Source: an uncultured Gammaproteobacteria bacterium (GTDB lineage: Bacteria; Patescibacteriota; Microgenomatia; Levybacterales; GWA1-39-11). From it: a stretch of 64,000 nucleotides of DNA. The notes below the pieces were generated by a model. The model made no database searches and was not told the DNA's origin. It saw only the letters and a list, made by a program, of their open reading frames with translations. Position numbers and translations under genes: made by a program. Positions within the stretch are counted from its first letter, which is position 1, and every line of letters starts with the position of its first letter. This document shows, in pieces, positions 11,097 through 64,000 of this stretch. The stretch lies in assembly GCA_964651815.1 (NCBI GenBank), contig CAZYWG010000001.1, positions 1,189 through 65,188 of the forward strand. The letters run 5' to 3'.

Positions 11097-12008
11097 CTAA
11101 GCTTTTGCAAAATATATGTTTACGTACTCCGGTGCTTCTCCATCAACGGTAGAGCTCACAATCTCAAGTATTATTGGCCAATGTGTGTTGCCGGGATATA
11201 ACACACGAGAATTTAAATGAACCCCAATATCCGCAAATGTTGTTTTACCATTTCCACCAGGTGTCGCTAATACGTGTAATATTGCATGAGTATTTCCTCT
11301 TAATGTCATTTCAGATTCCGTTTCTCCAATCCAAAGCTTTTGTGAAGAGGATTTTGGCGCTTCATTTAAATACTGTTTTATCTCTTCTCTAAAATTACGG
11401 CCCATATCACTTATCTGTATAGGTCCTTTTTGTTGATCAGAGGGAATCCATTTTCTATCTTTTGAAATCCGCATTTTTACACCTAATATGCTATTTGATC
11501 TGTTATCTCGAATAAAATCCCAGTTTTCATCAGGGCCTGGATCCCCACTGATAACAATATCCTCATTATCAAAAGCTTTTTGTAAATCTCCATTAACAAG
11601 TCTCGCACCATGATCATAATAAAGCTTAAACAAACCGCTACCCTCATCTAACCTAACGCTTCTTAAAGAATAATTGCTAACATGAGCAACTGCCTCAACC
11701 ATTCCGTCTAGTCTAATCTGTGAGTTTAACAAATCCGAAATTTGAAGACCTTGAGCATCAACTTCAAGTCCTAGTTGAGCATATCTACTTCTTGGGGACG
11801 TTTGTAACTTAGATATTGAACCTTTGGGATTATCTTTTAAAAAAGTCTGTAAAAAAGATGCAGGAATTGAAATGGGGGTAGGAATAGGTTTTTTAGTTAA
11901 AGGAGGAACTTCAAGACCCAAAGAAAGTCTAATATCAGGACTTACACCAAAATGAGCTTCAGGATTAGTTGTGAGAGTTTCTCTCGCCATGGGATGTGAT
12001 TTTACCAA
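11097..12008 (-). CDS. Hypothetical protein (no family recognised)
   Basis: 303-aa ORF between rpsG and the GT-C gene. An alternative start exists at the internal Met (11990). Confidence 0.45.
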   Translation of the reverse strand: MVKSHPMARETLTTNPEAHFGVSPDIRLSLGLEVPPLTKKPIPTPISIPASFLQTFLKDNPKGSISKLQTSPRSRYAQLGLEVDAQGLQISDLLNSQIRLDGMVEAVAHVSNYSLRSVRLDEGSGLFKLYYDHGARLVNGDLQKAFDNEDIVISGDPGPDENWDFIRDNRSNSILGVKMRISKDRKWIPSDQQKGPIQISDMGRNFREEIKQYLNEAPKSSSQKLWIGETESEMTLRGNTHAILHVLATPGGNGKTTFADIGVHLNSRVLYPGNTHWPIILEIVSSTVDGEAPEYVNIYFAKA

Positions 12009-12074
12009 AATTTGAATCTAAAATCAATAATATAGGATGATTTGAGGAGTTACAAACAGATGTTTGGAAACAGT

Positions 12075-12551
12075 TTACCAGCGGAAGTGAGAAAAGGCTT
12101 TGTTTGCTTCTGCCATACGGTGGGCTACATCTCTTTTTTTCACTGCTTCACCGGCGTTTTTAGTAGCGTCAAGAAGTTCTGCTGCAAGCTTGTCTGCCAT
12201 TGTCTTGTATTCTGAAGTCGGACGTTTTTTTGCGGCTTCCAGTAACCAGCGAATTGCAAGAGCAGTTTTTCTTGCGCCGCGGACTTCCTGAGGGACTTGA
12301 TATGCAGCGCCTCCAATACGTCTTGCTTTTACTTCTGTCTTTGGTCCAACTGACTCTATTGCTGACTCAAACAATTTAACAGGATCTCCCTCTTTTTTAA
12401 GTATCTCTAATGCATTATAAACAACTCTTTGTGCAACTGTCTTTTTACCGTCACGCATTAGTCGGTTTGTAAACATTGTTATAAGTACACTCCCGTAAAC
12501 CGGGTCACCCTGAATATTTCTTTTTTTATAACTTGCTCCACCTCTTGCCAT
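12075..12551 (-). CDS. rpsG: 30S ribosomal protein S7
   Basis: MARGGASYKKRNIQGDPVYGS...KTVAQRVVYNAL, canonical S7. Confidence 0.95.
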   Translation of the reverse strand: MARGGASYKKRNIQGDPVYGSVLITMFTNRLMRDGKKTVAQRVVYNALEILKKEGDPVKLFESAIESVGPKTEVKARRIGGAAYQVPQEVRGARKTALAIRWLLEAAKKRPTSEYKTMADKLAAELLDATKNAGEAVKKRDVAHRMAEANKAFSHFRW

Positions 12552-12557
12552 AATTTT

Positions 12558-12977
12558 TTAAGCTTGTGCTTCCGGTCTTTTTGTACCGTATTTACTCCTT
12601 GATGAGCGTCTTCCTTCTACTCCAGCTAGATCAAATTTACCCCTAACCAAATGGTATTTTACTCCTGGTAAATCTTTTACGCGGCCGCCGCGGACCAAAA
12701 CTATTCCGTGCTCAGCCAAGTTGTGGCCAATTCCCTGAATGTATGCCGTAACCTCTTCTCTATTAGAAAGTTTCACACGGGCAACTTTTCGGAGTGCTGA
12801 GTTAGGTTTTCTTGGAGTCATGGTACGCACTAGAGTTACAACTCCCCGCTTTTGAGGTGACGGGACTGTTGTGTATTTTCTTTCTTTTGCGTTAAAGACA
12901 GTTCGAAGACCGGTTACTTTAACCTTTTTAAATTTTTTGGTTCTTCCTTTTCTTATTAATTGATTTAATGTCGGCAT
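12558..12977 (-). CDS. rpsL: 30S ribosomal protein S12
   Basis: [12 protein letters not shown]...[10 protein letters not shown], canonical S12. Confidence 0.95.
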
Positions 12978-13017
12978 GGATTGTTATTTTACAATATTCG
13001 AAGCTGAAATACTAGTG

Positions 13018-16000
13018 TTATGAAGTGGCTGTTGGCTCAGGAGTATTCTGCTCTACAACACTGGCTTCAATAAATTCTTCTCTGACTGGAATAAGACGTC
13101 CAACAATGACATTTTCTTTAAGCCCGATAAGATTATCAACCCGTCCTTCAAGTGCAGCATCAGTTAACACCTGGGTTGTTTCCTGGAAAGATGAAGCTGA
13201 AAGCCAAGAATCTGTGACAAGTGAAGCTTTTGTTATTCCAAGAATTATCTCGCGTGCTGATGATGGTTCTCCGCCCTCAGAAATAATATTTGAGTTTTCT
13301 TCTTCAAATCTTAGTTTAGAAACTAGATCTCCAGGCATAAGATTTGTGTCGCCCGGTGTTTCAATCATTACTTTGTCAGACATTTTGCGGACAATTGTTT
13401 CAAAATGCTTATAATTAATTGCAATTCCTTGAGACTCATAAACACTTTGTATTTGGGCAATAAGATATTGTTGCGCCGCGCGAAGCCCTGAAATCTTCAG
13501 TACATCACGAGGATCAAGATAACCTTCACAAAGTTGCGTTCCTGCGTCAACAGTGGCACCTTCCTCAACAAGTACGGTAGAAGTCAAAGGAACAAAATAT
13601 TCACGTTCTTCAACCGGTTTAACTCGGGTATTTCTTACGCGAATTATATATCCGTCCTCTACTTTATTAATTTGAATCTTTCCGGCAATCTCGGCAATTG
13701 GAGCCAAAACTTTTGGGCGGCGTACTTCAAACAATTCTTCAACACGCGGCAATCCTTGTGTAACGTCAGACATAACAACTCCTCCAAAGTGACGAACACG
13801 CATGGTAAGCTGGGTTCCAGGCTCTCCAATTGATTGAGCAGCAATAACTCCAACCGGGGTTCCCATATCTGCACGGTTGTATGATGATAGATCCCAACCA
13901 TAACACGCGGCACAAAGTCCGTATCTGAGACGGCAGAAAAGTGGAGAACGAACAGTAATCTCTGTAATTGTTTCGTCTTTTAAAATTGCTGCAAGCGCTT
14001 CGTAATTAATTTCAGTCCCTTTTGAAACCCGAGTTTTTTTATCTTTTTTGCTCACAATATCTTTCATAACAACACGACCAAGAAGCATGCTTGTCATGTA
14101 AGACTCGTTATCGCGGCGAGTCATGTCAACCATTATTCCTTCTGAAATACCACAGTCTCCTTGGCGAATTATGACGTCGTGGGCTACATCTACCAAACGG
14201 CGGGTAAGATATCCGGCATCAGCAGTTTTTAGAGCAGAGTCAGTCAAACCTTTACGTGAACCGCGGGCAGAGTTAACGTATTCAAAAATTGAAAGTCCTT
14301 CGCGGAAATTTGATTTAATAGGAAGTTCAACAATTCGTCCGAGCGGGTCAAAAATAAGTCCACGCATAGCTGCCAACTGTTTAATTTGATCTTTTCCGGC
14401 CCTCGCTCCTCCTGATTCGGCAATAATTCTGACGATATCATTTTTGTCGAATAATTCCCAAGTAAGATTTGCCATTTTCTCAGTTGCTTCAAGCCACACG
14501 TTATTTGAAAGTCTTCTTTGCTCTGCATGTGTGATAAGACCGTTTTGATATTCTTGCTCAATTTCCTTGATTTTGTCTTCCGCTTCATTAACTAAAGTGT
14601 CTTTGTTTGGAAGGCGTTTCAAATCAAATGTTGATACGGAAATTCCTGAAACTGTTGCTGCATAAAACCCTATTTCTTTAAGATTATCAATTAAAGCTGC
14701 GACTTCCTCTTCATTTGCTATAACCATAGCTCGTGTAACAATATCTTTTATAGTGGACGCCTTTACTTCATGATTTATAAATCTAAGTGCTTCTGGTAAT
14801 CTCTCATTGAATATAATTCTTCCAATTGTTGTATCCATGATTTTTCCATCAATTCTCACTTTTATAGGTTCGCGGAGTTGAATGTGTTTTAGAGAGAAAG
14901 CAAGATGAGCTTCTTTTGCATCAGAAAAAACAGTTGGATTTTCGCGTTTTATTCTTTCATCAACTGAAGTAAGATAAAAGGCTCCAAGCGCCATTTCCTT
15001 ATTTGGGAGTGTGATTGGAGCACCATCTGCCGGCTTCAATAAATTATGTTGCGGCATCATTAAGCGTGTTGCTTCTTCTTGTGCGCGAGCCGACAAAGGG
15101 ACATGAATTGCCATTTGGTCTCCATCAAAATCAGCGTTATAACCGGCACAAACGCAAGGGTGAATTTTAATAGCCGATCCTTCAACTAAAACAGGATAGA
15201 ATGCCTGGATACCAAGCTTGTGTAAAGTTGGTGCTCGGTTAAGAAGCACAGGGTGGTTTCTGGTTATTTCTTCTAAAATATCAAAAATCTCAGGAGATCT
15301 TCTTTCTATAAATCTTTTAGCGGCTTTTACGTTGGGAGTAGTAAGACCACGCGAAATAACCTCACGAATTACAAAGGGTTTGAAAAGTTCTAATGCCATT
15401 TCTTTTGGAAGTCCACATTGGTTAAGAGTTAATTCCGGTCCAACGATAATAACTGAACGTCCGGAATAATCAACTCGTTTTCCAAGTAAGTTCTTACGGA
15501 ACCTACCTTGTTTTCCGCGCAAAATATCCGAGAGTGACTTAAATTGTTTTTGGGTTTGTGAAGTTCTAATAGATGTATCAATAAGGTAATCAACAGACTC
15601 CTGCAACATTCTTTTTTCATTTCTAAGAATAATTTCCGGTGCACCTAGAGAAATTAAATGTTTCAAGCGGTTGTTTCTGTTAATTACGCGGCGGTATAAG
15701 TCATTTAAGTCACTGGTTGCAAAACGTCCACCATTAAGTTGAACCATTGGGCGAAGATCCGGTGGTAAAACCGGCAATACCTGCAACACAAGAGAAGACG
15801 GTTTAAATCCTGCTTTAATAACTGATTCAATTAAATGTTGGCGTTTCAATAATTTTAATTGTTTTTGCCCTGAAGATTTCTGTACCTCTTCACGAAGATC
15901 CCCAATAAGTTTGGTTAAATCAATCGATTCAATAGCATGAAGAATTGCAGAAGCGCCAGTCTCAACCTCAAAAAAGATTGGTACATCATATTCAATTAAA

Positions 16001-52373: not shown

Positions 52374-52970
52374 GTGAAAATAATGATAAAAAAATTAGCA
52401 ATAACAGCAGCTGCTGCAGGCATAATGCTAGTATCTGCTCTTCCAGCATTTGCTTCAACAAGCGTTACCATTTCTGGTAATGGCGCCTTATCCCACAACG
52501 GAGTAGGTGTTTTCAGTTTAAGCTCTTCGAAAGTAAAGCAAACTAACAACACTTTTGTAGGCACATTTGTCTCGTCCTCTACAAATACAGGGGGGAACCA
52601 TTCCAGTTTTAATACTGGCGGAAGTAACTCAATTACAACCGGAGGGTCAACAACAGGAGTAAGCGTTGGTGTTGAGGGAGGAACAAATACTAATTCAGGA
52701 ACTCCATGCGGTTGCCAAACGGGCGGCAGCACAGACGTTACCATTTCTGGTAATGGAGCGCTTTCTAGTAATGGTGTTTTAGTTGTCAGCAGTAATTCAA
52801 ATACTGTGAAACAAAGTAACAATACTGTTGTCGTAACTGGTGTTGAAACAGAAACCAACACAGGAGGCAATTCCACAAGCTTTAATACAGGTGGAAGTAG
52901 CTCTATCACAACGGGTGATTCATCAACCGCTGTAGAAGTCACGGTAACTGGTTCGTCAAATTCTAACTAA
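52374..52970 (+). CDS. Secreted tandem-repeat protein (2 repeat units), ISGNG/NTGGN repeat family
   Basis: Strong SD GGAGGTG. Signal peptide ending AFA|ST. Two ~90-aa units each begin VTISGNGALS.NGV and contain NTGGN..SFNTGGS.SITTGG/DS, separated by a CGC motif. Confidence 0.7.
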   Translation: MKIMIKKLAITAAAAGIMLVSALPAFASTSVTISGNGALSHNGVGVFSLSSSKVKQTNNTFVGTFVSSSTNTGGNHSSFNTGGSNSITTGGSTTGVSVGVEGGTNTNSGTPCGCQTGGSTDVTISGNGALSSNGVLVVSSNSNTVKQSNNTVVVTGVETETNTGGNSTSFNTGGSSSITTGDSSTAVEVTVTGSSNSN

Positions 52971-53090
52971 TCACAAGATTAGTCAGAATAGAATAGGGCG
53001 CAGAGAGCCCTTAGAAGTGAGAGAAAACCTCTTTTCGAGAAATCGGAAGAGGTTTTTTCTTGTTTACCCTGAGTGTGTTTTGAGGCTAAA

Positions 53091-53765
53091 TTACTTGACT
53101 GGATCGGCAAATACAAGGAGGCGGAACCAGTCTGTTCCTACAGGTGTACACGTCTGCAAGATAAGCTGCGTACGCGTCTCCTTTGTTAAATACTGAATAT
53201 CCGAGGGTAAAACGGTCCTAAGCTCACGTACCTTATATATATAATCGCGGTTTTCCCGAGTTACGATTATCTTGTCCCCTGGTTTTAGTTCATCAAGCCT
53301 GAAAAAAATCACATTATAACGGGTGATTCTCCACGGAAAGTCTGATGAATGGGCAAAAATATACATAGTCCCGCTTTGCGCAGGATATGACGTACCTTTT
53401 GCTTGGGCAACGCCGTGTGTTAATGCTTCGTGATAAGTAGACGAATTAAACGGATCAACACCCCAAATAATAGGTGCTGCGACATTAATTTTTGGGATTG
53501 TAATTCTGTTTGGGCTATGAACAGCGGGCATAACGGGAAAAAATAACAGAATTAGTGGATAGTAAATATAAAAAAGAAGAAATGCTGCCAAAATCATGAT
53601 AGAGCTCCCTATCTGCTGGCGACGATTCTTTCCGAATATCAATTGAACAATGCGGCTTGAAATTAATAAAAGCCCTTTTTGGCTTTTTGTTTTTTTTTTG
53701 GATTTTCTTTTTATTCTTTTTACTTTTTTGGGGGATTTTGTTTTTTTCTTAGGCATGGAATTCAT
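53091..53765 (-). CDS. Sortase (transpeptidase), Lys-rich N-terminus
   Basis: TM helix, ITIPKINVAAPII, YIFAHSS, and the catalytic LILQTCTP (TLxTC). Immediately downstream of the LPETG-bearing protein. Confidence 0.8.
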   Translation of the reverse strand: MNSMPKKKTKSPKKVKRIKRKSKKKTKSQKGLLLISSRIVQLIFGKNRRQQIGSSIMILAAFLLFYIYYPLILLFFPVMPAVHSPNRITIPKINVAAPIIWGVDPFNSSTYHEALTHGVAQAKGTSYPAQSGTMYIFAHSSDFPWRITRYNVIFFRLDELKPGDKIIVTRENRDYIYKVRELRTVLPSDIQYLTKETRTQLILQTCTPVGTDWFRLLVFADPVK

Positions 53766-53786
53766 TATACGCTTGTTAGGAGGGAA

Positions 53787-54968
53787 TTATTTACGCGAAC
53801 GAGGAGGCGAAACGTCCGTTGAGAAACGCAAATACCATCCAGATAGGAAAATTGAAAACAAAAATAATGTTGCTAAAAACATCCAGGCGGAGCCAGTCTC
53901 TGGCAAAATTGATCCGGTGGACGCTGCAAGTACTTGACCGCCGGAACTTCCACCTGAACCTCCTCCGGACCCACCACCAGAATTGCTTGAACCTCCTCCA
54001 CCCGATGACGGTGGATTATTGGTAGGATTGCAATTATCGGTGCATGGGGGTGGAGGTGGAGGCGTTTGGGGGCAATCAATGGTAAAAGAATTATCATTTC
54101 CGGCATTATTAACGTTTACTACGCTAGCAATACTACCCGTTGAGATTGAAACATTTCCATTATTGTTGTTTGCCGTATTATTTCCGGTATTTAATGCAAC
54201 CCAAATCACGTTATTGAGGTTGAAACGATTATCTACAGAATAATTAAGGGTATTAGTAAAATTGTAGGCAATAATATTGTTTGATCCTGTGCCGTTCCCT
54301 GAAATGTTAAAAATTGGATCTAAATTAAGTCCAAATCCCGACGCCGTATTTTTATTTATATTTTGGTTTGAGACATTGACAAGAGACGAGATATTTCCCG
54401 TAAGTATAAATACATTTCCGTTGTTGTTATTTGCCGTATTATTTCCAGTATTGGCAGCAGTTGTAATTGAATTTGTGATATTTGCCGTGTTGTTTTGGGT
54501 AACATTTGCAGCAAGATTTTCATTTACGATAGCTGTATTGGTAGATCCAGCACCGTTATCCGTAATATTTACTGTTGTTGAACTTTGTGATTGAGCACAA
54601 TTACAATTTCCCGTTGCGCTGTTTGAATTTATATTATTGTTGGTTACATTAGTTGTTGTGGAGACATCTCCTGTTTGAATTGCAGTCGACCCCGCTTGTG
54701 AAGGATCCGTTGATGGCGAACCGGTGTTATTATTTGCCGTATTGTTGCCTGTATCCGAATTAGTTTTTACGTCATTTTGAACATTTGCAGTATTATTTTG
54801 AGTAACAGTTGTGGTATTTGTTGACGTGACACTTGCTGTATTCTGCGAACCATCACCGTTGCCTGTAACTGTCACCTCAACCGTATCAGCCACAACTACA
54901 CCTGCGGCTCGCAAAAAGGATAGCAATATTAATGGCAGGATAAAAAGCGAAACAATTATTTTCTTCAT
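53787..54968 (-). CDS. Cell-wall-anchored (LPETG) Asn/Thr-rich tandem-repeat surface protein, same repeat family
   Basis: Signal peptide. Repeats contain CNC and TIDC motifs, then a Pro7 and Gly/Ser linker. The C-terminal sorting signal is LPETG + hydrophobic helix + RSRK. Confidence 0.8.
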   Translation of the reverse strand: MKKIIVSLFILPLILLSFLRAAGVVVADTVEVTVTGNGDGSQNTASVTSTNTTTVTQNNTANVQNDVKTNSDTGNNTANNNTGSPSTDPSQAGSTAIQTGDVSTTTNVTNNNINSNSATGNCNCAQSQSSTTVNITDNGAGSTNTAIVNENLAANVTQNNTANITNSITTAANTGNNTANNNNGNVFILTGNISSLVNVSNQNINKNTASGFGLNLDPIFNISGNGTGSNNIIAYNFTNTLNYSVDNRFNLNNVIWVALNTGNNTANNNNGNVSISTGSIASVVNVNNAGNDNSFTIDCPQTPPPPPPCTDNCNPTNNPPSSGGGGSSNSGGGSGGGSGGSSGGQVLAASTGSILPETGSAWMFLATLFLFSIFLSGWYLRFSTDVSPPRSRK

Positions 54969-55045
54969 TATTACTTAATAATATATAAACCCAGAGTGAT
55001 GTAAAGCGTTAAGAAGTTTGTAAGAAACGGGTTTTGAATGGCCGC

Positions 55046-57337
55046 TTACAAGAGCAGGTGTACCCCTTTAACAACTACACCCCGCAAGTACGTCAACTTC
55101 TTTTTAAGAATTATGACGCTTACTATTGGAATGGCGATAAATAGAATCCACGCAAGATTGAAGGTCAACATGTGAGCAGCGCTTTTTACGCTTGTATTAA
55201 CAAGGCCGCTATTAGAATTTCCGGTGATTCCTGCAAAAAGACCTCCGGTTGTACCACCTGTTGCGCTTGTTCCGAGGACATTTCCCCCAAAGAAGACTGT
55301 TGAAGATGAACCTCCGGAATTTGTTGTCACTGTTCCGGCTCCGGCAGATACTGTACCTCCAGAATTCGACGTGTTAGACCCGTTTGAATTATTGTTTGAA
55401 TTATTTCCGCCGCCTCCACCATTTTGCGGATTTTGGGCCGTTTTTGCAGGATCATTTGGGTCAGACATGCCTGGTGTTACAAAATTTCCAAGCCAGCTTC
55501 CAAATACATTGACAACTGTCACAACCAATTTTCCGCCGCCTGTTATATTGTTATTTACAAAGTTAACAAGATTTGCAATTACGTTTGCATTACCAGTTGT
55601 AATATTTGAATCTCCGCCAGTGTTGTAGTTGGAATTATTTCCGCCCGTGTTGGCTGACAAATTAATATTATTTTGGATATTTGCGTTGTTTGACTGTGTT
55701 GTAGTGTTATTGTTTGTTGTAGAACTATTTGCCGTGTTGTTTGACCCAGCACCGTTGTTTGAATTTCCGTCGATTGCAGTGACTGCACCCGTTACTGGAT
55801 CCACTTCAAATTCTGTTCCGGCAGAACCCGCCATAGTTGCTCCATCCGGCGCGCCCATTATTTTTCCAATCCAATGCCCTGCTTCATTGACAATAACAAG
55901 CCACCATGTGCCACCGTCAACATTATTGTTGGCTACATTCAAAACATTTGCATCAACACTTGACGAACCTGTAGTGACGGTTGAATCGCCATTTGTATTA
56001 AAGTTTGCATCATTTCCACCCGTAGCTGCGTTGAATGTGAGATTATTGTCAATATTTGCATTGTTTGTCTGTCCGGTTGTGTTGTTATTTGTTGTAGAAC
56101 TGTTTGCTGTGTTGTTTGACCCTGCGCCGTTGCCGGAATTGGCCGTTGTTGAAGTGGAGCTGCAGCCGCAAAGAAGTGCGTCTATTGTTGATTGTGGCAA
56201 AATAATATCCCCTACCAAATTTCCGAAAATATTAACCACATTGTAAAGTACGTTGCCTGAAATATTGTTGTTGGCAAAAGTCAAAACGTTTGCATCTACA
56301 TTTGCGTTTCCTGTTGTGATATTGGAGTCTCCGCCCGTATTAAATTGCGTTGCATTATTTCCGGAATTAGCCGATAAATCAAGGCTGCTTCCAATACCCG
56401 CATTATTTGACTGCGAAGTATTGTTATTATTTGTAGTCGAACTATCCGCGGTATTTGTGGAATTTGCACCGTTGCCGGAATTACCAACTATATTTTGTGC
56501 TCCGCATCCATTTGTACAAGAGCTTGTTGCATTCCCGGGCGCCAAAATTATGTCCCCTGTTTGGTTAGTATCTACATTGAATGTTGCAACAGCCACACCG
56601 TCAACATTATTGTTAACTGCCGTGATCACGGTCCCTGAAGTATTTGCGTCACCTGTAGTTATTGACGAATTGCCAGTGTTCATTGAAGCGGTATTTGTAC
56701 CCGTTACAGTTGCCGTAGTGAGATTGTTTGCCACATTTGCGCTGTTTCCTTGAGATGTAGTTGCCGAATTTTGGTCAGTTGAACTTGCAGAGTTATTAGA
56801 ATTAGAACCATTACCGGAATTAAGGGTTGCCGAATTTCCGCTGCATGTAGAACACGAACCACCACCTGTTGCCAAATTATTGTTACCTGTTGTTGCGAGT
56901 GTTGAATTGTTTGTTGCACCACCTGTTGTAATATTTGTATCCCCAACATTTCCGCTTGCATTAGTCCCGCCTCCGGTTTGTGTCTGTGTGTCAGCTTGCG
57001 CGTTAAAGTTAGGAGAAGTCGGTGCTGTTGGCGCGGTTGGAGCCGTTGGCATAGTTGGTGGTGTTGGTAGGTCTGGTGCTGCAGGTGGCGCAGGTGGAGT
57101 TGGCGCGCTTGGCGCGGTTGGCATAGTTGGTGCGGTTGGTGGTGCCGGAGGCGCTGGCGCTGTTGGCATAGTTGGTGCGGTTGGTGGTGCCGGAGGCGCT
57201 GGAGCACTTGGTGCAGTGGGCGCGTCCGGTGCACTAGGTCCATCATCTGCTAAAGCTGCTACTGGCAAAGAAAGCCGGCCAAGTAGTAACACTATGATTA
57301 GCGCGATTGATAGTATTTTTTTAATTTTGTTTGTCAT
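55046..57337 (-). CDS. Large (763 aa) surface repeat protein: signal peptide, Pro/Ala/Thr-rich N-terminal linker, at least 4 long repeat units of the same family, C-terminal TM anchor
   Basis: Repeats read NSGNGAGSNNTANSSTTNNN...NTGGDSNITTGNANV...CGC. The C-terminus is hydrophobic helix + KKK. Many + strand ORFs in this interval are low-complexity artefacts. Confidence 0.75.
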   Translation of the reverse strand: MTNKIKKILSIALIIVLLLGRLSLPVAALADDGPSAPDAPTAPSAPAPPAPPTAPTMPTAPAPPAPPTAPTMPTAPSAPTPPAPPAAPDLPTPPTMPTAPTAPTAPTSPNFNAQADTQTQTGGGTNASGNVGDTNITTGGATNNSTLATTGNNNLATGGGSCSTCSGNSATLNSGNGSNSNNSASSTDQNSATTSQGNSANVANNLTTATVTGTNTASMNTGNSSITTGDANTSGTVITAVNNNVDGVAVATFNVDTNQTGDIILAPGNATSSCTNGCGAQNIVGNSGNGANSTNTADSSTTNNNNTSQSNNAGIGSSLDLSANSGNNATQFNTGGDSNITTGNANVDANVLTFANNNISGNVLYNVVNIFGNLVGDIILPQSTIDALLCGCSSTSTTANSGNGAGSNNTANSSTTNNNTTGQTNNANIDNNLTFNAATGGNDANFNTNGDSTVTTGSSSVDANVLNVANNNVDGGTWWLVIVNEAGHWIGKIMGAPDGATMAGSAGTEFEVDPVTGAVTAIDGNSNNGAGSNNTANSSTTNNNTTTQSNNANIQNNINLSANTGGNNSNYNTGGDSNITTGNANVIANLVNFVNNNITGGGKLVVTVVNVFGSWLGNFVTPGMSDPNDPAKTAQNPQNGGGGGNNSNNNSNGSNTSNSGGTVSAGAGTVTTNSGGSSSTVFFGGNVLGTSATGGTTGGLFAGITGNSNSGLVNTSVKSAAHMLTFNLAWILFIAIPIVSVIILKKKLTYLRGVVVKGVHLLL

Positions 57338-57436
57338 TTTATTTTTTACGAACTATTTTTTAATCGAACTCTTATTAATTTCTATATTTTCTATTTACTA
57401 ATAACTATTTACTGTTTCTATGTTGTTCGGAAACTT

Positions 57437-57477
57437 GTAGGGTGTTTTTGTCGAAGTGCTAACAAAAAGCACCCTAC
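57437..57477 (-). promoter_or_regulatory. Strong intercistronic hairpin 17 nt after the stop of the first repeat-protein gene (possible attenuator or processing site)
   Basis: GTAGGGTG-TTTTTG ... CAAAAA-g-CACCCTAC gives a ~14-bp stem with a 12-nt loop. No adjacent U-tract. Confidence 0.35.
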
Positions 57478-57493
57478 CAAGTAATCCTTAAAG

Positions 57494-58753
57494 CTAGATT
57501 GACAATCCAAAGAAAGACAATAAAGCTTGAATGTCGAAAGAAAGGCTAACACTTGATCCTCCGGGAAGTGGAAGTACAAATGGTGTTCCTCCAACAGTGT
57601 TGACGTTGCCGCTGTTATTAACATCGGTTGAGTTAGTGGAATCGCCAGTTATGATAGCTGGGTCGTTTCCATTTTCTACAGATCCAGTGTTAAGGTTTGC
57701 GTCATTGTAACCAGTCTTTGCATTTGAGTAGACATCGTTGTCGAGGTCTGCTGCATTTGCTTGTCCGATTTCATTGGCGTTAGCAAGAACTAGGTCAATA
57801 CCGTTTTGGGTAAGACCGTTTTCTCCATAAGAAGAAGCTCCGTTTCCGTCAATTTTTGCAAGAACGTCAAATGTGCATCCACAGTCAACGCTGGCACTAT
57901 TAAAGTTAACCATGTTGTCTACGTTTGCACCTGCTTTCGCATCGCCGGTTGAGATTACTACATCTCCTCCGGTGTTGAATTTAGCATCGTTGCCTCCGGT
58001 TTTTGCATCTGAGTTAACATCGTTGTCGATGTTAGCTGAGTTTGCCTGCTCAACGCTTGAAGAATTTGCTAAGACTGCGCTAATCCAGTTATCGCTGCCA
58101 GCTCCATTTCCAAGAATTTTGAAGGATGCACCAGATCCTGAAGCTCCTGCTCCGCCTCCGATCATTGCAGAATTTGAATTCGCAACGGTCTTAACGTTTG
58201 CATTTGCTGTAGCATCTCCGGTTACAACTACCACGTCTCCTCCGGTGTTAAGATTTGCATCGTTACCTCCGGTTTTGGCGTCTGACTTGATGTTATTGCT
58301 AACATCAGCACTGTTTGCTTGTTCAACAGTGTTTGAATTTTCATTTGTAAGAGTTACAAGATTTTCGGATTTTGCTCCGTTTCCTGAAATTAATACATTT
58401 GTGTCAGATCCACAATTACATCCAGCGACCGTAGCAGCATTGCTGTTAAGGACATTGGTTACGTTTGTGGTGGTTTTTGCATCACCAGTTTTAACGGTTA
58501 CGTCTCCACCGGTGTTGTAATTTGCGTCATTGCCACCTGTATTTGCGTTAGTGGTAATGTTATTGTTTACATTTGCTGTATTACTCTGTGAAACGGTGGT
58601 TGAATTTGACTGTACTGCTTGCACAGCATTATTTGAACCAGATCCATTTCCAGAAATTTGAATAGTAGTATCAGCGAAAGCTGGAGTTGCCATAGAAAGA
58701 ACTACTGCACCTGCTGCTATTACTGAAACTACTTTTTTTTGAAATTTTGTCAT
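57494..58753 (-). CDS. Secreted tandem-repeat protein (4 repeat units), ISGNG/NTGGN family. Putative major subunit of the locus.
   Basis: Strong SD (AGGAGGTGATT). Signal peptide AFA|DT. Four ~90-aa units: IQISGNGSGSNN / VLISGNGAKSEN / FKILGNGAGSDN / IDGNGASS, each with TGGNDAN.NTGGDV...TGDA and ending in CNCG / GGG / CGCT. Confidence 0.8.
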   Translation of the reverse strand: MTKFQKKVVSVIAAGAVVLSMATPAFADTTIQISGNGSGSNNAVQAVQSNSTTVSQSNTANVNNNITTNANTGGNDANYNTGGDVTVKTGDAKTTTNVTNVLNSNAATVAGCNCGSDTNVLISGNGAKSENLVTLTNENSNTVEQANSADVSNNIKSDAKTGGNDANLNTGGDVVVVTGDATANANVKTVANSNSAMIGGGAGASGSGASFKILGNGAGSDNWISAVLANSSSVEQANSANIDNDVNSDAKTGGNDAKFNTGGDVVISTGDAKAGANVDNMVNFNSASVDCGCTFDVLAKIDGNGASSYGENGLTQNGIDLVLANANEIGQANAADLDNDVYSNAKTGYNDANLNTGSVENGNDPAIITGDSTNSTDVNNSGNVNTVGGTPFVLPLPGGSSVSLSFDIQALLSFFGLSI

Positions 58754-59087: not shown

Positions 59088-59333
59088 TTATTCCGTTCTC
59101 CTGAATTGCGTATGAATACTAAAAACTTTTTGGTCGGATGTTTTTTCTTCAACACCAGTCTGCGTTTCGTGTGTTATATTTATTGAGGTTTTTTTGATGT
59201 TGCGGACAGTTATTTGAGTAACTGTTTTATCCTGAACGTAAATTTCAATACTCCCAAAATCAACTGAGTCGAGTGCGCTTTCAATCTCTTCTATGAGATC
59301 TTTTTTTTGTTTGGTCTTGACAAAGCTCGACAT
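59088..59333 (-). CDS. DUF2292/YezD-like small protein
   Basis: FGSIEIYVQDKTVTQITVRNIKK matches the YezD family core. Confidence 0.45.
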   Translation of the reverse strand: MSSFVKTKQKKDLIEEIESALDSVDFGSIEIYVQDKTVTQITVRNIKKTSINITHETQTGVEEKTSDQKVFSIHTQFRRTE

Positions 59334-59384
59334 ATTTTAAATCATCGCGTCTCACATACCTATATATATAGATTCTGAATTTTC

Positions 59385-59951
59385 CTATTTGAATGATACG
59401 GGAATTATTGTTTTTTTACCTGCTATTTCTCCTACTTGAAGCTTTAAATCTTTGTCTGTTTCATTTACTGCAATCCCAATGCGCGTTGGAGTTGTAGAAA
59501 TAGCTTGTGCTTCAACCGGATCGCTGTGGATATCAGCGGCAAACCAATTTTTTGTATCATTGTTTACAGAAATTCTCACATAATCTCGGCTGTTAATCTG
59601 CAAACCCTGGTTAAGGCTGTTTATTATTTTAATGTTTACAATTAAAAATACTCTACCCGTAACTGCTGACGCCGGTTGGCCTTTGACAACAATGTGGTGA
59701 CGCAGTTCAGCCGATTGAATAATATATGTAAAATCACCCGTTTTTGCACCTTTACTATCTTTCAGCGGGAAGGTAAAGTTTCTATTGATTTCTGTTGTCT
59801 TTACATCATTATTATTTGTGGTTGTGTTTGCTCCGGCAACGGACGCGTTATCCTTTTTCCCAAATACTGCAAAAATTCCCAAGACAACAATTACAAAAAT
59901 GGCTATTGGAATAACTAATCGCAAAATATTTTTCTTGTTAATGTTTGGCAT
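59385..59951 (-). CDS. Membrane-anchored hypothetical protein (DUF4352-like beta-sandwich). The track ORF extends to 60119.
   Basis: The internal Met MPNINKKNILRLVIPIAIFVIVVLG gives a proper signal anchor. The upstream 56 codons are probably non-coding leader. Confidence 0.5.
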   Translation of the reverse strand: MPNINKKNILRLVIPIAIFVIVVLGIFAVFGKKDNASVAGANTTTNNNDVKTTEINRNFTFPLKDSKGAKTGDFTYIIQSAELRHHIVVKGQPASAVTGRVFLIVNIKIINSLNQGLQINSRDYVRISVNNDTKNWFAADIHSDPVEAQAISTTPTRIGIAVNETDKDLKLQVGEIAGKKTIIPVSFK

Positions 59952-60124
59952 TTTAATGCTTGGCGCAAATTTACTTCCGGCAATTCGTGCTTCGCGACTT
60001 GTCCCTACGAATGAGAATAAAAATCCTTTTAATTTTTGGGCGTTTTCTTCAAGAACGTCAGCAACTGCGTTGATGGTTGGAAGGTATGCAAATGTTGATG
60101 CTTTTCTAGGTGATGCCATATTTC

Positions 60125-60322: not shown

Positions 60323-60796
60323 ATGATAAATACAATTATTACAGACTTTTCCCGCGTTATTCTGAATCCCAAAGATAAAAATTACAAAGATACGGTGAAC
60401 GGCTTATACAAAACGCTAAAACAAAAAAATCCTCTACTCAACTTCTTTGAATATTTTGAATTTGATGATGAAGTTTTAAATTTATATTCATCCCTAAAAG
60501 ATAAATATTCTCTTAACATTTTTACAACAGGCGGAATTCAAAAAGCACCGGAAGTACAATCAAAAATCGCCGGGATTTTTGAGAATGTATTTTCTGCGGA
60601 AGATCTTGGAGTTGAAAAAGACCAAGCAAAAACATACAAATTACTTTCCGATAAACTGCAAACGCGTCCCGAAGATATTTTATATATTGACGACCAGATT
60701 AAAAATATTGAAGCAGCAAAAGAAGCCGGAATGACAACTACTCTTTTTCAAAACATTGAACAACTTACATCAGAATTAAAAAAATTTACCCCGTGA
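60323..60796 (+). CDS. HAD-superfamily hydrolase-like protein (short)
   Basis: N-terminal IITDFSRVIL (motif I-like) and C-terminal YIDDQIKNIEAAKEAG (motif IV). Confidence 0.45.
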   Translation: MINTIITDFSRVILNPKDKNYKDTVNGLYKTLKQKNPLLNFFEYFEFDDEVLNLYSSLKDKYSLNIFTTGGIQKAPEVQSKIAGIFENVFSAEDLGVEKDQAKTYKLLSDKLQTRPEDILYIDDQIKNIEAAKEAGMTTTLFQNIEQLTSELKKFTP

Positions 60797-60863
60797 AACA
60801 TCCGTTTTTTTGAGTGAAAAATCTTTTAATAATGTTTGATTACTATTTATATACAAGAGATAT

Positions 60864-60892
60864 ATTGACTCAAAAATTTTCACATCATATAC
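60864..60892 (+). promoter_or_regulatory. Candidate sigma70 promoter (TTGACT - 17 nt - TATACA) upstream of the tasA-like leader
   Basis: About 320 nt upstream of tasA. An intrinsic terminator lies between them. Confidence 0.35.
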
Positions 60893-61100
60893 ATGTAATT
60901 GCCAATAAAACGGCGCCGACTGACAATCTAAATTTCTTCGGGATATATTCTTAGCGTAAGCCATGAATCTCTTGCAGAAAAGTCGGATCTCTATAATTTG
61001 CCCACTTATAGAGTAGCTTTCCATTTGTGAGTTTTTTTTGAAATTATATATTAGTAAGATTTAGTTTTTAGACATATAACTATCCTGCCCAGCGATAGAA

Positions 61101-61128
61101 ATCAGCTTCTGGCAGGGCTGATTTTTTG
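61101..61128 (+). terminator. Rho-independent terminator/attenuator (ATCAGC-ttctggcagg-GCTGAT followed by TTTTTT) in the tasA-like leader
   Basis: 6-bp stem plus flanking pairing, then a T6 tract, 85 nt upstream of the tasA SD. Confidence 0.55.
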
Positions 61129-61213
61129 ATGGCGTTAAGCCATCACCCCGAGCGTTAGCGAGGGGTCTTATAAATCTTTCGGTGGACAAAAAATGATTGG
61201 AGGTGAATTATAA

Positions 61214-61804
61214 ATGAATAAGAAAATATTTTTTAGCGCGATTTCAGTTGTAGCAGCCCTAGCTCTTATGGGCGGCGCAACCTTCGCATTCTTTTCAAGC
61301 AGCGCAACTAGCACAGGAAATATATTTGCCAGCGGTACGCTTGCTCTTAAGCTTGATGATACTGATGAAACTACACCAGCTGCAACTGTTACAGCTTCTA
61401 TTGGTGCTAGTAATTTAGCTCCAGGTGGTACGGTATCCGGTTTCATTTCGATGCATAATGACGGATCAATAGCAATCCAACATGTCGATTTAAGCGGAAC
61501 AGAAACCGCTACAAGTGTTCCTGATCTTGCAACAAAATTGCAATTCACTTCGGTCAAACTGGGTGATGACAACACTTGCTCAACCGGTACATCAGATATA
61601 ACTGCATCACTTATAGCAGCGATCGGTGGAAATACATTAGATAAATTAAATTTGACTGAGTATGATCTACCTGGTCTTGCAGTAAGTGCTACCAAGTATG
61701 TGTGCATGACTTTAACATTTGACCCGCTTGCTGATAATACATTTCAAGGTAAATCAATTACCGAGAAGTTTACGTTTGTTGGCGATCAAGACGCGAGTCA
61801 ATAA
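61214..61804 (+). CDS. tasA: TasA/camelysin-like (peptidase M73 family) secreted protein with a SipW-cognate signal peptide
   Basis: Strong SD GGAGGTG. N-terminus ALALMGGATFAFFSSSATSTGNIFASGTLAL matches B. subtilis TasA GGGTWAAFND...ATFASGTLDL. SNLAPGG..F..MHNDGSIAIQHV matches TasA SNLKPGD..F..NNGSLAIKEV. Confidence 0.8.
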   Translation: MNKKIFFSAISVVAALALMGGATFAFFSSSATSTGNIFASGTLALKLDDTDETTPAATVTASIGASNLAPGGTVSGFISMHNDGSIAIQHVDLSGTETATSVPDLATKLQFTSVKLGDDNTCSTGTSDITASLIAAIGGNTLDKLNLTEYDLPGLAVSATKYVCMTLTFDPLADNTFQGKSITEKFTFVGDQDASQ

Positions 61805-61858
61805 TTTTTTGTTGGTGGCAGGGTTCTGCAGAGCTCTGCTACCAACTCAGGATATGTC

Positions 61859-61944
61859 ATCCCCAACTTGATTGGGGATCTAGACACCGTCCTCGGACTT
61901 GATCCGAGGAACCAGAATAAAATAGAATCCGGATCAAGTCCGGA
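61859..61944 (+). promoter_or_regulatory. Three consecutive hairpins with conserved pentaloops (CTTGA, CTTGA, TCAAG) between tasA and sipW. The last abuts the sipW ATG.
   Basis: ATCCCCAA-CTTGA-TTGGGGAT (61859-61879), CCTCGGA-CTTGA-TCCGAGG (61891-61909), TCCGGA-TCAAG-TCCGGA (61928-61944). Plus GTTGGTGGCAG...CTGCTACCAAC at 61811-61846. Confidence 0.35.
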
Positions 61945-62544
61945 ATGACAAAAAAAAATAAAATGAAAATATTAAAAACATTTACAAAAGGCCTTTTTAC
62001 AATTGCAGTTTTAATTATTCTGCCAATTGTACTATTCACATTCATAACTGCTAAAACCAACTTTTTTGGGATTCAATCTTTTGTTGTCCTTTCCGGATCA
62101 ATGCAGCCAACTCTTCCCGTAGGTAGCGTAATTTATACACAACATAGGACCCTTTATCAAAAAGGCGATATCATTGCTTTCAAACGCGGTGATGTAAATG
62201 TAACCCACAGAATTATAAAAATTAATGAAGACGGAACTTTTGTGACGCAGGGAGACGCCAATAATGCTGCAGACAATAAGACTGTAGCGAGTAGCGACAT
62301 TTTGGGTCGCGAGACTTTCTTTCTTCCGTATGTAGGCCGCGCAATTGTTTTTCTAAAAACGCCAATTGGATTTTTTGGCAGTGTTGTTTTCCCTATTACT
62401 GTTTTTATCATTCTTGAACTATGGAACCTTAAGCGGGAAATAGAAAAAGAAGTTGAGCGGAAATTACAAAAGAAAATGGAAACAGCACATAACCTGTCAT
62501 TGCGAGGTCCCCAAGGGACCGAAGCAATCTCAATCGAATTATGA
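61945..62544 (+). CDS. sipW: Signal peptidase I, SipW/archaeal-eukaryotic type (S26B)
   Basis: N-terminal TM helix, VVLSGSMQPTLPVGSVIY (catalytic Ser), GDIIAF, VTHRII (His), FVTQGDAN..D and a C-terminal TM helix. This matches SipW-type peptidases, not LepB-type. Confidence 0.8.
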   Translation: MTKKNKMKILKTFTKGLFTIAVLIILPIVLFTFITAKTNFFGIQSFVVLSGSMQPTLPVGSVIYTQHRTLYQKGDIIAFKRGDVNVTHRIIKINEDGTFVTQGDANNAADNKTVASSDILGRETFFLPYVGRAIVFLKTPIGFFGSVVFPITVFIILELWNLKREIEKEVERKLQKKMETAHNLSLRGPQGTEAISIEL

Positions 62545-63242
62545 ACAAACTTAAATTTATTTCTTTAGGAATTATTTGCACATTTTTAATTGCATTTTTG
62601 TCTTACAAAACAACTTTCGCGTTGTTTTCAAGCAATGCACATTCCACCAACAACGTCTTCTCAGCAGCCCAAGCCTTCCCAACAGCAACTCCATCTGCAA
62701 CCCCAACACCTTCTCCAACACCCACTCCCCAAATCGCCCAAACTTTGGTCATAAACGAAGTACTACCGGTTTCAAGCTGCGTAGATGGACAAAAAGACAC
62801 AAATTGGATAGAAGTTTATAATGGAACAGGTGGCGATGTAAATTTGAAGAATTTCAAACTTAGCGATGGATCTAATATTACCGACTTGGTTACTTCAAAC
62901 ACCACGCTACCCTCACATCAGATTGCTTTAATTGCAAAAGACGGAAGTATATTTAATAAAGGTACAGATAAAGGAAACAAATGTTGGCCCGATAACAATG
63001 CAATAACTGTTAACCTCGGTAACAATGCCCCTGTAAATTTTGCATCTGGTATATTAAGACTTCTCGCCTCTGACGGGACTACCGTTATTGACCGGGTTGA
63101 ATTTGGAACAGCTCCTTTAAATCCTGCAACTAATCAATCTATCGAAAGAAAACCGGTTGGGCACGATTCTATAACGGGAGACTTTTTTGTAGCTAGCGAC
63201 TTTATTTTACAAACTAGCCCAACACCAGGGCTTGGATTATGA
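62541..63242 (+). CDS. Secreted lamin-tail-domain (LTD) protein with SipW-cognate signal peptide and Pro/Thr linker
   Basis: N-terminus KTTFALFSSNAHSTNNVFSAA (SipW-cognate class), linker PTATPSATPTPSPTPTP, and the LTD core LVINEVLP...WIEVYNGTGGDVNLKNFKL. Overlaps sipW by 4 nt. Confidence 0.7.
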   Translation: MNKLKFISLGIICTFLIAFLSYKTTFALFSSNAHSTNNVFSAAQAFPTATPSATPTPSPTPTPQIAQTLVINEVLPVSSCVDGQKDTNWIEVYNGTGGDVNLKNFKLSDGSNITDLVTSNTTLPSHQIALIAKDGSIFNKGTDKGNKCWPDNNAITVNLGNNAPVNFASGILRLLASDGTTVIDRVEFGTAPLNPATNQSIERKPVGHDSITGDFFVASDFILQTSPTPGLGL

Positions 63243-64000
63243 AAAGATTATTTAGAATTATATTAGCATTAGTAATAATAGGAGTAATGGTTAAATTTGT
63301 TGCGCCGGACCTTTTTAAACCATCAACCGTCCGGGCATTTGGTGACTTGGTTGTCAATTTCCATGTCCCTTTGAATAACCCCATTTTCACTGTTACCAAT
63401 ATGGCGCCCGGGGATCCGCCGCAAAACCGTAACGTTGATGTCCACAATAATGCCTCCGTTTCAAGGCTCGTATCGGTAAAGGGAGTAAGGACAGGTGGGG
63501 TTGGAGCAGACCCAAAACTCGAGACAGTTCTTGATCTGGTAATAAAAGACGGCGCAACCCCAGTCTACGGGACAGGCAGCCTTACAGGCCCTAAATCTGT
63601 CAAAAACTTTTTTGATGACAGCACTGCAACAGATGGTGTAAAACTCAACATAATTAATCCTGGAGGCGATAAAACATATAATTTTAAAGTCACTTTTCCC
63701 TCATCTGCCGGAAATGATTTTCAGGCAAAGTCGGTTATTTTTGACCTGACTTTTGGTGAAGTTACGGGAAATAATGTGGTTATAAATGAAGTTTACTATC
63801 TTGTTGACCCAAGCAAAGGTCTTGATAGTCCCAAAGACCGCGGGATACTTTCTGTCAATGGAAATAATGTAACAATTGTAATTTCCGGAAACGGCGCTTG
63901 GTCAAAAAATAAAGTTGTCGTAACCCAACTCCAAGCATGTAAACTCCTCCAGACAAATAATACAAATGTTGTGACAAACGTAACATCAAATACAAATACC
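63239..64000 (+). CDS. Secreted protein, partial (continues off the right edge). LTD-like INEVYY motif and an ISGNG motif shared with the 52-59 kb repeat family.
   Basis: ATG at 63239 overlaps the upstream stop (ATGA). N-terminal TM/signal, VVINEVYYLVDP, NVTIVISGNGAWSKNKVVV. Not in the ORF track because it has no stop inside the window. Confidence 0.6.
   Translation, partial: MKRLFRIILALVIIGVMVKFVAPDLFKPSTVRAFGDLVVNFHVPLNNPIFTVTNMAPGDPPQNRNVDVHNNASVSRLVSVKGVRTGGVGADPKLETVLDLVIKDGATPVYGTGSLTGPKSVKNFFDDSTATDGVKLNIINPGGDKTYNFKVTFPSSAGNDFQAKSVIFDLTFGEVTGNNVVINEVYYLVDPSKGLDSPKDRGILSVNGNNVTIVISGNGAWSKNKVVVTQLQACKLLQTNNTNVVTNVTSNTNT

Follow-up and report, generated by a model that had tools for sequence, protein, structure and literature searches.

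The fibres formed by TasA of Bacillus subtilis are not amyloid, but are built from folded subunits joined by donor-strand exchange (PMC9674648, PMC10151520). In mature TasA, the next subunit is completed by a donor strand made up of residues 28–38, F29, I32 and F39 being buried. The N-terminus of TapA is similar to this strand and is believed to initiate the fibre (PMC9674648, PMC10151520). A related set of genes lies at the end of a 64,000-nucleotide stretch of DNA, referred to here as the window, taken from contig CAZYWG010000001.1 of an assembly (GCA_964651815.1) labelled as an uncultured Gammaproteobacteria bacterium and placed by GTDB in the Levybacterales of the Patescibacteriota. The set comprises four co-directional open reading frames (ORFs) from 61214 to the window end, the last of which (gene 4, called ORF4) ends at a position equivalent to 64570. 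The original prediction for this region described TasA fibres as amyloid-like, which the current view of donor-strand-exchanged folded subunits replaces. This means that the interesting logic of the locus concerns donor strands. It is judged fairly probable that the genes from 61214 to 64570 specify a secreted TasA-class fibre of a very small Microgenomates bacterium, held together by donor-strand exchange and equipped with a donor-only cap (the product of gene 3) and an acceptor-only adhesin subunit (ORF4). The accessory proteins probably cap both ends of the fibre.

The locus resembles the tapA-sipW-tasA operon of B. subtilis in several respects. First, the major subunit has the TasA fold and an N-terminus consisting of a hydrophobic core, GG, an x-T-[WF]-A site, F at the P2′ position and the ...F-A-S-G-T-L continuation. 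Second, the operon encodes a dedicated S26B Ser/His peptidase. Third, the N-terminus of the accessory protein copies the donor strand, and the peptidase and accessory genes overlap at their stop and start codons. The tapA-sipW-tasA logic proposed earlier holds for the components (a TasA-like subunit, its own SipW-type peptidase and additional secreted proteins cognate to it), but not for the gene order (tasA-like, sipW, accessory here; tapA, sipW, tasA there) or for the accessory bodies, since the accessory protein here carries a lamin-tail domain (LTD) in place of the V-set immunoglobulin domain of TapA. Further differences are an extra TasA-like paralogue with adhesin-like C-terminal modules, peptidase-accessory fusions in relatives, a host from the candidate phyla radiation (CPR) and an adjoining sortase/repeat-protein locus. 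The window proteins also score far under the Bacillus equivalog cut-offs (33 against 450 for TasA, 88 against 190 for SipW).

The AbpA/AbpB bundling pili of Pyrobaculum calidifontis (PMC9245690) provide a second comparison. They have a TasA-homologous jelly-roll subunit, AbpA, which is polymerised by donor-strand insertion, as is presumed here, and a downstream TapA-like protein proposed to be both first-strand donor and adhesin. Unlike the present system, AbpA uses a generic signal peptidase with no dedicated SipW gene nearby, and the window protein is much closer to the bacterial members of PF12389, with AbpA (7ueg) being a weak Foldseek match (E 3.5e-3). The occurrence of PF12389 in Patescibacteria was noted earlier by Wang et al. 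2022 (PMC9245690). Literature searches on TasA, SipW or camelysin with CPR lineage names found only this distribution note; neither the present cluster nor a combination of SipW and an LTD was described in any paper found. The TasA family in Patescibacteria is thus already known, and what is new is the accessory architecture: the proposed donor-only LTD cap, the donor-less TasA-like adhesin subunit, the peptidase-substrate fusions and the link to the ISGNG/sortase locus.

Two other groups of systems share single features with this locus. In Bacillus cereus (sipW-tasA-calY) and Clostridium perfringens (BsaA/SipW), sipW is likewise clustered with more than one TasA-family paralogue, major and minor. 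There, each paralogue is a complete subunit that has the canonical N-terminus with signal and donor strand, whereas the second one here has no such motif and carries RTX, ISGNG or LTD modules. Chaperone-usher pili, with the FimH/PapG tip adhesins and the PapH terminator, are comparable by analogy only, as donor-strand-exchange polymers with specialised end subunits. The end-subunit types likened to theirs are an acceptor groove with an adhesin domain and no donor strand, and a donor-only primer. Unlike in those pili, there is no usher or periplasmic chaperone, assembly would take place outside a monoderm-like envelope, and no homology exists between the two.

The gene set is conserved well beyond the window. 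A scan of one genome per species yielded 19 loci with related genes (L numbers below), whose named hosts include Levybacteria, Daviesbacteria, Curtissbacteria and the 'Patescibacteria group'. As determined by tblastn and ORF mapping, about 15 of the 19 keep the order tasA-like, sipW, gene 3, ORF4-homologue, ISGNG-repeat protein; these are Microgenomates loci (Levybacteria, Daviesbacteria, Curtissbacteria and relatives). A sortase and large repeat proteins like those at 52.4–58.8 kb of the window are usually found nearby. This synteny with sortase and ISGNG-repeat genes supports the earlier suggestion of a ~12-kb island devoted to surface structures. The closest relative (L021, 76% protein identity) has the same layout as the window, in which genes 2, 3 and 4 are joined by ATGA stop/start overlaps at 62541–62544 and 63239–63242.

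Gene 1 encodes a TasA-fold protein with a SipW-type signal peptide. Profile searches bear out its description as TasA/camelysin-like, as it exceeds the cut-offs of Pfam PF12389 Peptidase_M73 (56.7 bits, cut-off 22.5; residues 2–195 on profile positions 3–194) and of TIGR04088 (23.6 bits, cut-off 19). All 55 of its homologues carry PF12389. It is not the equivalog of B. subtilis TasA, since NF046066 aligns with residues 1–93 only (E 3e-8) and gives 33.4 bits against a cut-off of 450. The N-terminus can be aligned to that of TasA (...GGATFA↓FFSSSATSTGNIFASGTL against ...GGGTWA↓AFNDIKSKDATFASGTL, the arrow marking cleavage), and the family conserves the motif F27/N36/F38/G41. A phmmer search against PDB sequences reached TasA at E 0.44–0.52 only, which is too weak, so a fold search was needed. 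The AlphaFold model, for which a 43-sequence homologue alignment was the input, has a predicted local distance difference test score (pLDDT) of 84.9 and a predicted TM-score (pTM) of 0.73. It consists of a beta-sandwich preceded by 40 N-terminal residues that form a low-confidence, unstructured extension in the monomer. The best Foldseek match in PDB is the cryo-EM TasA fibre 8aur (E 4.5e-8, TM 0.59/0.50), and the protein therefore models as TasA-like, as had been predicted. Weaker matches are, besides AbpA, the TasA-like TTHA1873 and CFA/I pilins. Polymerisation of gene 1 products presumably proceeds by N-terminal donor-strand exchange.

The family name used by Pfam, Peptidase_M73 or 'camelysin metallo-endopeptidase', together with the name 'spore coat-associated protein N' given by one source to a gene 1 homologue, would point to a secreted metalloprotease of the camelysin type, or to a coat protein that stays monomeric, instead of a fibre subunit. 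Such a role is very improbable. Neither HExxH nor another zinc-binding motif can be read in the 196-residue translation of gene 1, and the metalloprotease reading was rejected for the absence of HExxH. Furthermore, the top structural match is TasA in its fibre form, and the low-confidence extension of 40 residues is what would be expected of a donor strand. The type members of the family, TasA and CalY, are themselves fibre subunits.

Gene 2 is, as judged from its conserved residues, an S26B Ser/His signal peptidase, in line with its earlier designation as SipW-type. It exceeds the cut-off of TIGR02228, the profile of the archaeal and endoplasmic reticulum (ER) type of signal peptidase I (93.9 bits, cut-off 51.85), and remains under that of the bacterial-type TIGR02227 (29 bits, cut-off 47). 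It is not the Bacillus SipW equivalog (NF046067, 88.3 bits against a cut-off of 190). In the alignment to human SEC11A/C, the VVLSGSMxP motif (S52), the HR motif (H88) and GDxN/GD(A)N (D104) are conserved, and there is no Ser-Lys dyad. The sipW gene adjoins candidate substrate genes in about 15 loci. At P2′ of the predicted cleavage site, gene 1 has Phe (the invariant F27), as do 12 of 14 gene 3 homologues, the other two having Tyr and Pro. Escherichia coli LepB is described as cleaving P2′-aromatic substrates such as TasA poorly (PMC10269814), which offers a rationale for a dedicated peptidase.

An example of a direct connection between the peptidase and a candidate substrate is given by natural fusions. 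One ORF of about 420–450 aa covers both SipW and the donor-strand/LTD protein in L012 (Curtissbacteria), L013 and L016 (Levybacteria), and Pfam Peptidase_S26 and LTD are both found in the same protein. The parts follow each other as the SipW domain, its C-terminal membrane helix, a basic loop, a second hydrophobic segment with the FAFFSD...N.F motif, and the linker with the LTD. This order is consistent with a topology in which the predicted cleavage site faces outside. By the Rosetta-stone principle, such fusions link gene 3 to SipW as a probable substrate, and they are the strongest comparative evidence for this relationship.

The product of gene 3 can be described as a donor strand without a TasA body. 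Its sequence, ...KTTFA↓LFSSNAHSTNNVFSA, passes directly into a Pro/Thr linker and an LTD (PF00932, 42.7 bits, cut-off 34.3). Gene 3 is matched at residues 23–42 (E 3.5e-6) by a profile of the TasA-like N-terminus (first 50 residues), and this match is confined to profile positions 21–40. The homologues of gene 3 are matched at E 1e-7 to 4e-3 in 14 of 18 related loci and more weakly, at E 0.3–8, in L004, L011, L013 and L016. With 1,024 ORFs searched, the lowest E-value of an unrelated one is 0.27. The match always covers about positions 21–40, which hold the cleavage site and the donor strand, and never the TasA body. When the donor segment is compared with that of gene 1 (TFA↓FFSSSATSTGNIFAS), the identity over 15 residues is 53–73% in 11 of 14 loci and 40–47% in the other three. 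Likeness of the donor motifs is higher in same-locus pairs than across loci (0.586 against 0.524), a value reached by 168 of 100,000 permutations. The body of gene 3 is not homologous to TapA, as no NCBIfam match was found and the body corresponds to Pfam LTD, and gene 3 is thus an analogue of TapA outside the TapA family. In prokaryotes, LTDs occur in membrane-associated hydrolases and extracellular-DNA proteins (PMC5118699), and from these contexts the LTD of gene 3 could either anchor the fibre in the envelope or act in target binding. As an observation apart, three ORFs of 458–495 aa (L016:7968–9455, L004:2900–4276 and L013:6217–7629) share with the TasA-like family no more than about 50 N-terminal residues, comprising the signal and the N-terminal segment; the remainder is a different body, in the L016 protein a VWA domain.

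The placement of the same N-terminus before a VWA domain (L016 7968–9455) and other bodies (L004, L013) may also be understood differently: the TasA-like fibre would be processed by SipW, and gene 3 and ORF4 would encode independent secreted or surface proteins that share the export route without being built into the fibre ends. SipW-cognate N-termini stand on many unrelated proteins in the TIGRFAM logic, and the C-terminal domains of gene 3 vary, including forms of 158–170 aa without a tblastn match to LTD. However, the segment shared with gene 1 runs 15 residues beyond the predicted cleavage, keeps the invariant F, N and F and ends exactly at the start of the TasA body. Nothing in the function of a signal peptide would call for a copy of the donor strand, and TapA provides a precedent for such a copy. 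On balance, a role of gene 3 and ORF4 outside the fibre ends is considered unlikely.

ORF4, which runs off the window, was completed from the identical Logan contig L001 (L001:6067–7398). As predicted, it is an overlapping gene (ATGA) with an LTD (51.9 bits, cut-off 34.3; residues 299–397 on profile positions 20–108) and a single ISGNG repeat (E 7e-11 by BLASTP with the 57494–58753 repeat protein). The inserted repeat parts the first strand of the LTD (VVINEVYY) from the remainder, as it also does in L003 and L018. In the relative P0062, the same LTD is uninterrupted. The N-domain (about residues 1–175; 63239–63775) gives no Pfam or NCBIfam match, including TIGR04088 searched on ORF4 N-termini. 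Foldseek alone is not significant for this domain, and the further structure prediction used a shallow alignment of 10 sequences. When its profile is compared with that of the TasA-like family, the probability is 98.7% (E 2.4e-16), by which the N-domain is assigned as a second, unannotated TasA-like paralogue that was missed earlier.

The N-terminus of the ORF4 family is distinct from that of gene 1. A hydrophobic helix is followed by a conserved AxA↓VGDLTV, and, compared with gene 1, five residues and the FF...N.F pattern are missing; the N-terminal TasA-like profile finds no match to the family. Most relatives carry RTX calcium-binding repeats in the C-terminal part, and the closest homologues share with ORF4 an ISGNG repeat, present there in one copy behind a C-terminal Pro/Thr linker. 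In a search of 1.84 billion representatives, a profile of the N-domain that also included the linker and repeat region found 2,112 clusters at 50% identity with E ≤ 1e-3, of which 141 at E ≤ 1e-30. This points to a sizeable unannotated TasA-like subfamily.

From these elements, the following assembly pathway can be proposed. SipW would cleave the products of genes 1 and 3 after TFA, leaving an N-terminus with Phe at P2′, which is invariant in gene 1 and would anchor the donor strand by analogy with F29 of TasA. The gene 3 product would insert its donor strand into the first TasA-like subunit, thereby nucleating the fibre and capping one end with the LTD, as TapA would. Gene 1 subunits would then polymerise by donor-strand exchange. 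ORF4, which would be able to accept a strand but not to donate the canonical one, would occupy the other end, where it would accept the last free strand and display its C-terminal module (RTX repeats in most relatives). The strong stem-loop after gene 1 and the hairpins occluding the sipW start would lower the expression of the accessory proteins relative to the major subunit, and the adjacent sortase and LPETG/ISGNG-repeat proteins would be part of the same surface apparatus.

Several points speak against this proposal. Polymerisation, the cleavage sites and the end-capping are all inferred. The original prediction assigned gene 3 to the SipW-cognate class; its LTD is confirmed, but TIGR04088 gives no match at E ≤ 10 with the whole protein or its first 60 residues, and only the lineage profile described above places it there. 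The similarity of donor motifs within a locus may reflect shared phylogeny rather than co-evolution. Because the short gene 3 products (158–170 aa) of some relatives show no tblastn match to LTD, and no Pfam match in L021, the system can do without the LTD. In ORF4, the AxA site is located about 15 residues past the hydrophobic core, so the protein may remain membrane-anchored and its processing is ambiguous; its shortened LF...A segment could still act as a donor. Finally, the hairpins after the tasA-like genes lack U-tracts, so that any effect on transcription or on the stability of the mRNA is hypothetical.

A broader version of the donor-strand model can be offered tentatively. The cleavage site with the donor strand would serve as a tag that plugs any adhesion domain (LTD, VWA or others) into one end of a bipolar modular fibre, the donor-less paralogue would show RTX, ISGNG or LTD modules at the other, and in several lineages SipW, made as one polypeptide with its substrate, would release it by processing itself at the membrane. 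Together with the sortase-anchored ISGNG proteins, this would form an attachment organelle of episymbiotic CPR bacteria, distinct from type IV pili.

The spacer of 140 nt between the tasA-like gene and sipW is strongly structured, folding at -69 kcal/mol (z = -8.3). The strongest of its four hairpins, the stem-loop at 61811–61846, was overlooked in the original prediction. An equivalent GC-rich hairpin lies within ~80 nt of the tasA-like stop in 16 of the 19 loci, mostly without a U-tract. When ranked by stability among 50-nt windows, it falls in the top ≤1.2% in 15 of these loci and at 1.7% in the sixteenth. The post-tasA hairpins may be partial terminators or 3′ stabilisers of the major-subunit message, either of which would lead to a high-subunit and low-accessory ratio. 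A high tasA to low sipW expression ratio, as suggested earlier, is therefore plausible, but it rests on this conserved hairpin, which had not been singled out.

The remaining three hairpins have pentaloops and a shared core, CGGACTTGATCCG (13 specified bases). They had been described as identical; they are real, but the third loop is inverted. They are lineage-specific, being absent from the closest relative, L021. The claim that the last one sequesters the sipW start agrees with its position, as it ends at the base immediately before the ATG and no Shine-Dalgarno sequence is visible outside the stem. A dispersed family similar to repetitive extragenic palindromes (REP) or bacterial interspersed mosaic elements (BIME) was considered for the CTTGA hairpins and rejected, as the 64-kb window holds only the three clustered copies and one chance-like 5-bp site.

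The leader of gene 1 is less distinctive. The promoter reported at 60864 is present as TTGACT-17-TATACA, but such sites occur at chance frequency in the region (18 against 14.5 ± 3.7 in shuffles) and this one is not listed under the stricter rule. Similarly, the intrinsic terminator proposed in the leader, as a possible attenuator or small RNA, exists as a hairpin with T6 at 61102–61127. It needs relaxed rules to be found, and with 18 sites of this kind in the window, many within genes, its presence is at chance level there. A hairpin with a T-run is also located 35–185 nt upstream of the tasA-like genes of L002, L003, L006, L007, L015 and L021. Their recurrence in front of six related operons could mean a leader element or a terminator that insulates the operon. 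In L021, where the neighbouring gene upstream is divergent, the hairpin cannot serve to terminate that gene. A search of Rfam with 60700–62100 at E ≤ 10 found nothing credible. The tasA-like genes of the relatives are preceded by the same GGAGGTGA/GGGGGTGA Shine-Dalgarno element.

The spacer hairpins might lack any dedicated regulatory role, with the CTTGA/TCAAG copies arising by local palindromic duplication (REP-like or by slippage) and the leader terminator just ending the upstream HAD transcript. The third pentaloop hairpin is an inverted DNA copy of the second, with the RNA loop UCAAG instead of CUUGA, which indicates an origin at the DNA level; the absence of these hairpins from L021, the chance-level promoter and terminator matches and the lack of an Rfam family match agree with this. 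However, three perfect hairpins within 86 nt exceed the 0.24 expected by simulation per 64 kb, and no further 8-bp copy is present in the window, so they are not a dispersed repeat. The first spacer hairpin is conserved in position, and the last one abuts a start codon with no free Shine-Dalgarno sequence. A purely incidental origin for all of these structures is therefore possible but doubtful.

The neighbouring locus at 52374–58753 encodes proteins built of ~90-aa ISGNG...NTGGN...TGDA repeats, for which no Pfam match was found in the window. The 393-aa protein ends with LPETG, a transmembrane segment and a basic tail, and its gene adjoins that of the sortase. The 763-aa protein has a long proline-rich start, PAPPAPPTAPTMPTAP, and a transmembrane helix at its end. 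Among the relatives, a sortase gene is located near the tasA-like cluster in L002, L006, L007, L010, L012, L015, L020 and L021, and ISGNG-repeat genes are syntenic with it in L005, L010, L016, L019 and L020. The stretch between the repeat locus and the fibre operon (59088–60119, minus strand) encodes a small DUF2292 protein and a membrane protein of 244 aa with a single pass. Since both recur in the related islands L005, L012 and L019, they may belong to the system. The coordinates of all features are collected in Table 1.

Table 1. Features of the fibre locus and its surroundings (window coordinates unless a locus is given; ↓, predicted cleavage).
Feature	Position	Strand	Remarks
ISGNG-repeat surface protein, fourth, 198 aa	52374–52970	+	from translation
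Sortase	53091–53765	-	Pfam Sortase 85.5 bits
Three ISGNG-repeat surface proteins, 393 aa, 763 aa, 419 aa	53787–58753	-	from translations
Promoter-like TTGACT-17 nt-TATACA	60865–60893	+	read from sequence; absent from the stricter rule of the consensus scan
Terminator-like hairpin, 7–10 bp stem, 6-nt loop, then TTTTTT	61102–61127	+	87 nt before the tasA-like ATG
Two small leader hairpins (tgatggc-GTTAA-gccatca; CCCCG..CGAGGGG)	61127–61165	+	between terminator-like site and Shine-Dalgarno sequence
Strong Shine-Dalgarno sequence GGAGGTG	61199–61205	+	8 nt before the gene 1 ATG
Gene 1, tasA-like major subunit, 196 aa	61214–61804	+	predicted cleavage TFA↓FF after A25; donor-strand segment at about residues 26–38
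16-bp GC-rich stem-loop without U-tract	61811–61846	+	starts 7 nt past the tasA-like stop; conserved intercistronic element
Hairpin atccccaa-CTTGA-ttggggat, 8 bp	61859–61879	+	absent from the L021 spacer
Hairpin tcctcgga-CTTGA-tccgagga, 8 bp	61890–61910	+	alternative pairing with 61928–61944
Hairpin tccgga-TCAAG-tccgga, 6 bp	61928–61944	+	inverted copy of 61890–61910; ends at the base before the sipW ATG
Gene 2, sipW-like ER/archaeal-type signal peptidase I (S26B), 199 aa	61945–62544	+	catalytic candidates S52, H88, D104; N- and C-terminal transmembrane helices
Gene 3, TapA-like donor-only protein, 233 aa	62541–63242	+	signal peptide, TFA↓LFSSNAHSTNNVFSA donor-strand copy, Pro/Thr linker, LTD
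ORF4 (gene 4), 443 aa	63239–64000, off the window (end equivalent to 64570)	+	transmembrane/signal segment; TasA-like N-domain (about residues 35–175) without FF..N.F donor motif; LTD split by one ISGNG repeat
SipW-LTD fusions	L012:8789–10150; L013:9176–10432; L016:10801–12060		Peptidase_S26 and LTD
SipW fusions with internal signal/donor-strand motif	L019:8972–10159; L020:8879–9925; L014:1198–2607		C-terminal region without Pfam match

Several further observations concern the window and the related islands. The 82-aa ORF at 60776–61024 (minus strand), which overlaps the 3′ end of the HAD gene and is called as a gene on Logan contig L023, is probably spurious, because neither a recorded Pfam match nor a visible Shine-Dalgarno sequence supports it. 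The 64-kb window contains no tRNA gene, nor any Rfam family that reaches the gathering threshold. In L003, a second, divergent pair of tasA-like and sipW genes (11826–13399) lies directly downstream of the first cluster. In L021 and L022, an IS200/IS605-type Y1 transposase gene (L021:4897–5589; L022:4079–4771) is located between the fibre cluster and the sortase gene. Some hosts carry labels outside the CPR: L014 is assigned to Woesearchaeota, L019 to Nanoarchaeia, and L002, L003, L005 and others to uncultured Gammaproteobacteria, yet their islands are of the Microgenomates type, and L019 also has the DUF2292, 244-aa protein and ISGNG-repeat genes. Such labels on Microgenomates-type islands point to either mis-binned or mislabelled metagenome-assembled genomes (MAGs) or transfer between CPR and DPANN, and several of the labels on third-party annotation (TPA) MAGs (Gammaproteobacteria, Woesearchaeota, Nanoarchaeia) look doubtful.

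The members of the CPR/Patescibacteria are thought to live attached to other cells, and surface structures other than type IV pili are almost unknown in them. The locus described here is a concrete and widely conserved candidate fibre system in Microgenomates. It would extend the principle of TapA, a primer of the TasA fibre that consists of the donor strand only, to a different domain family, and it suggests that the 'SipW-cognate signal peptide' is a signal combined with a donor-strand docking tag. A large unannotated TasA-like subfamily of ~2,100 clusters at 50% identity has been identified along with it, and the natural peptidase-substrate fusions could be used for the study of S26B specificity.

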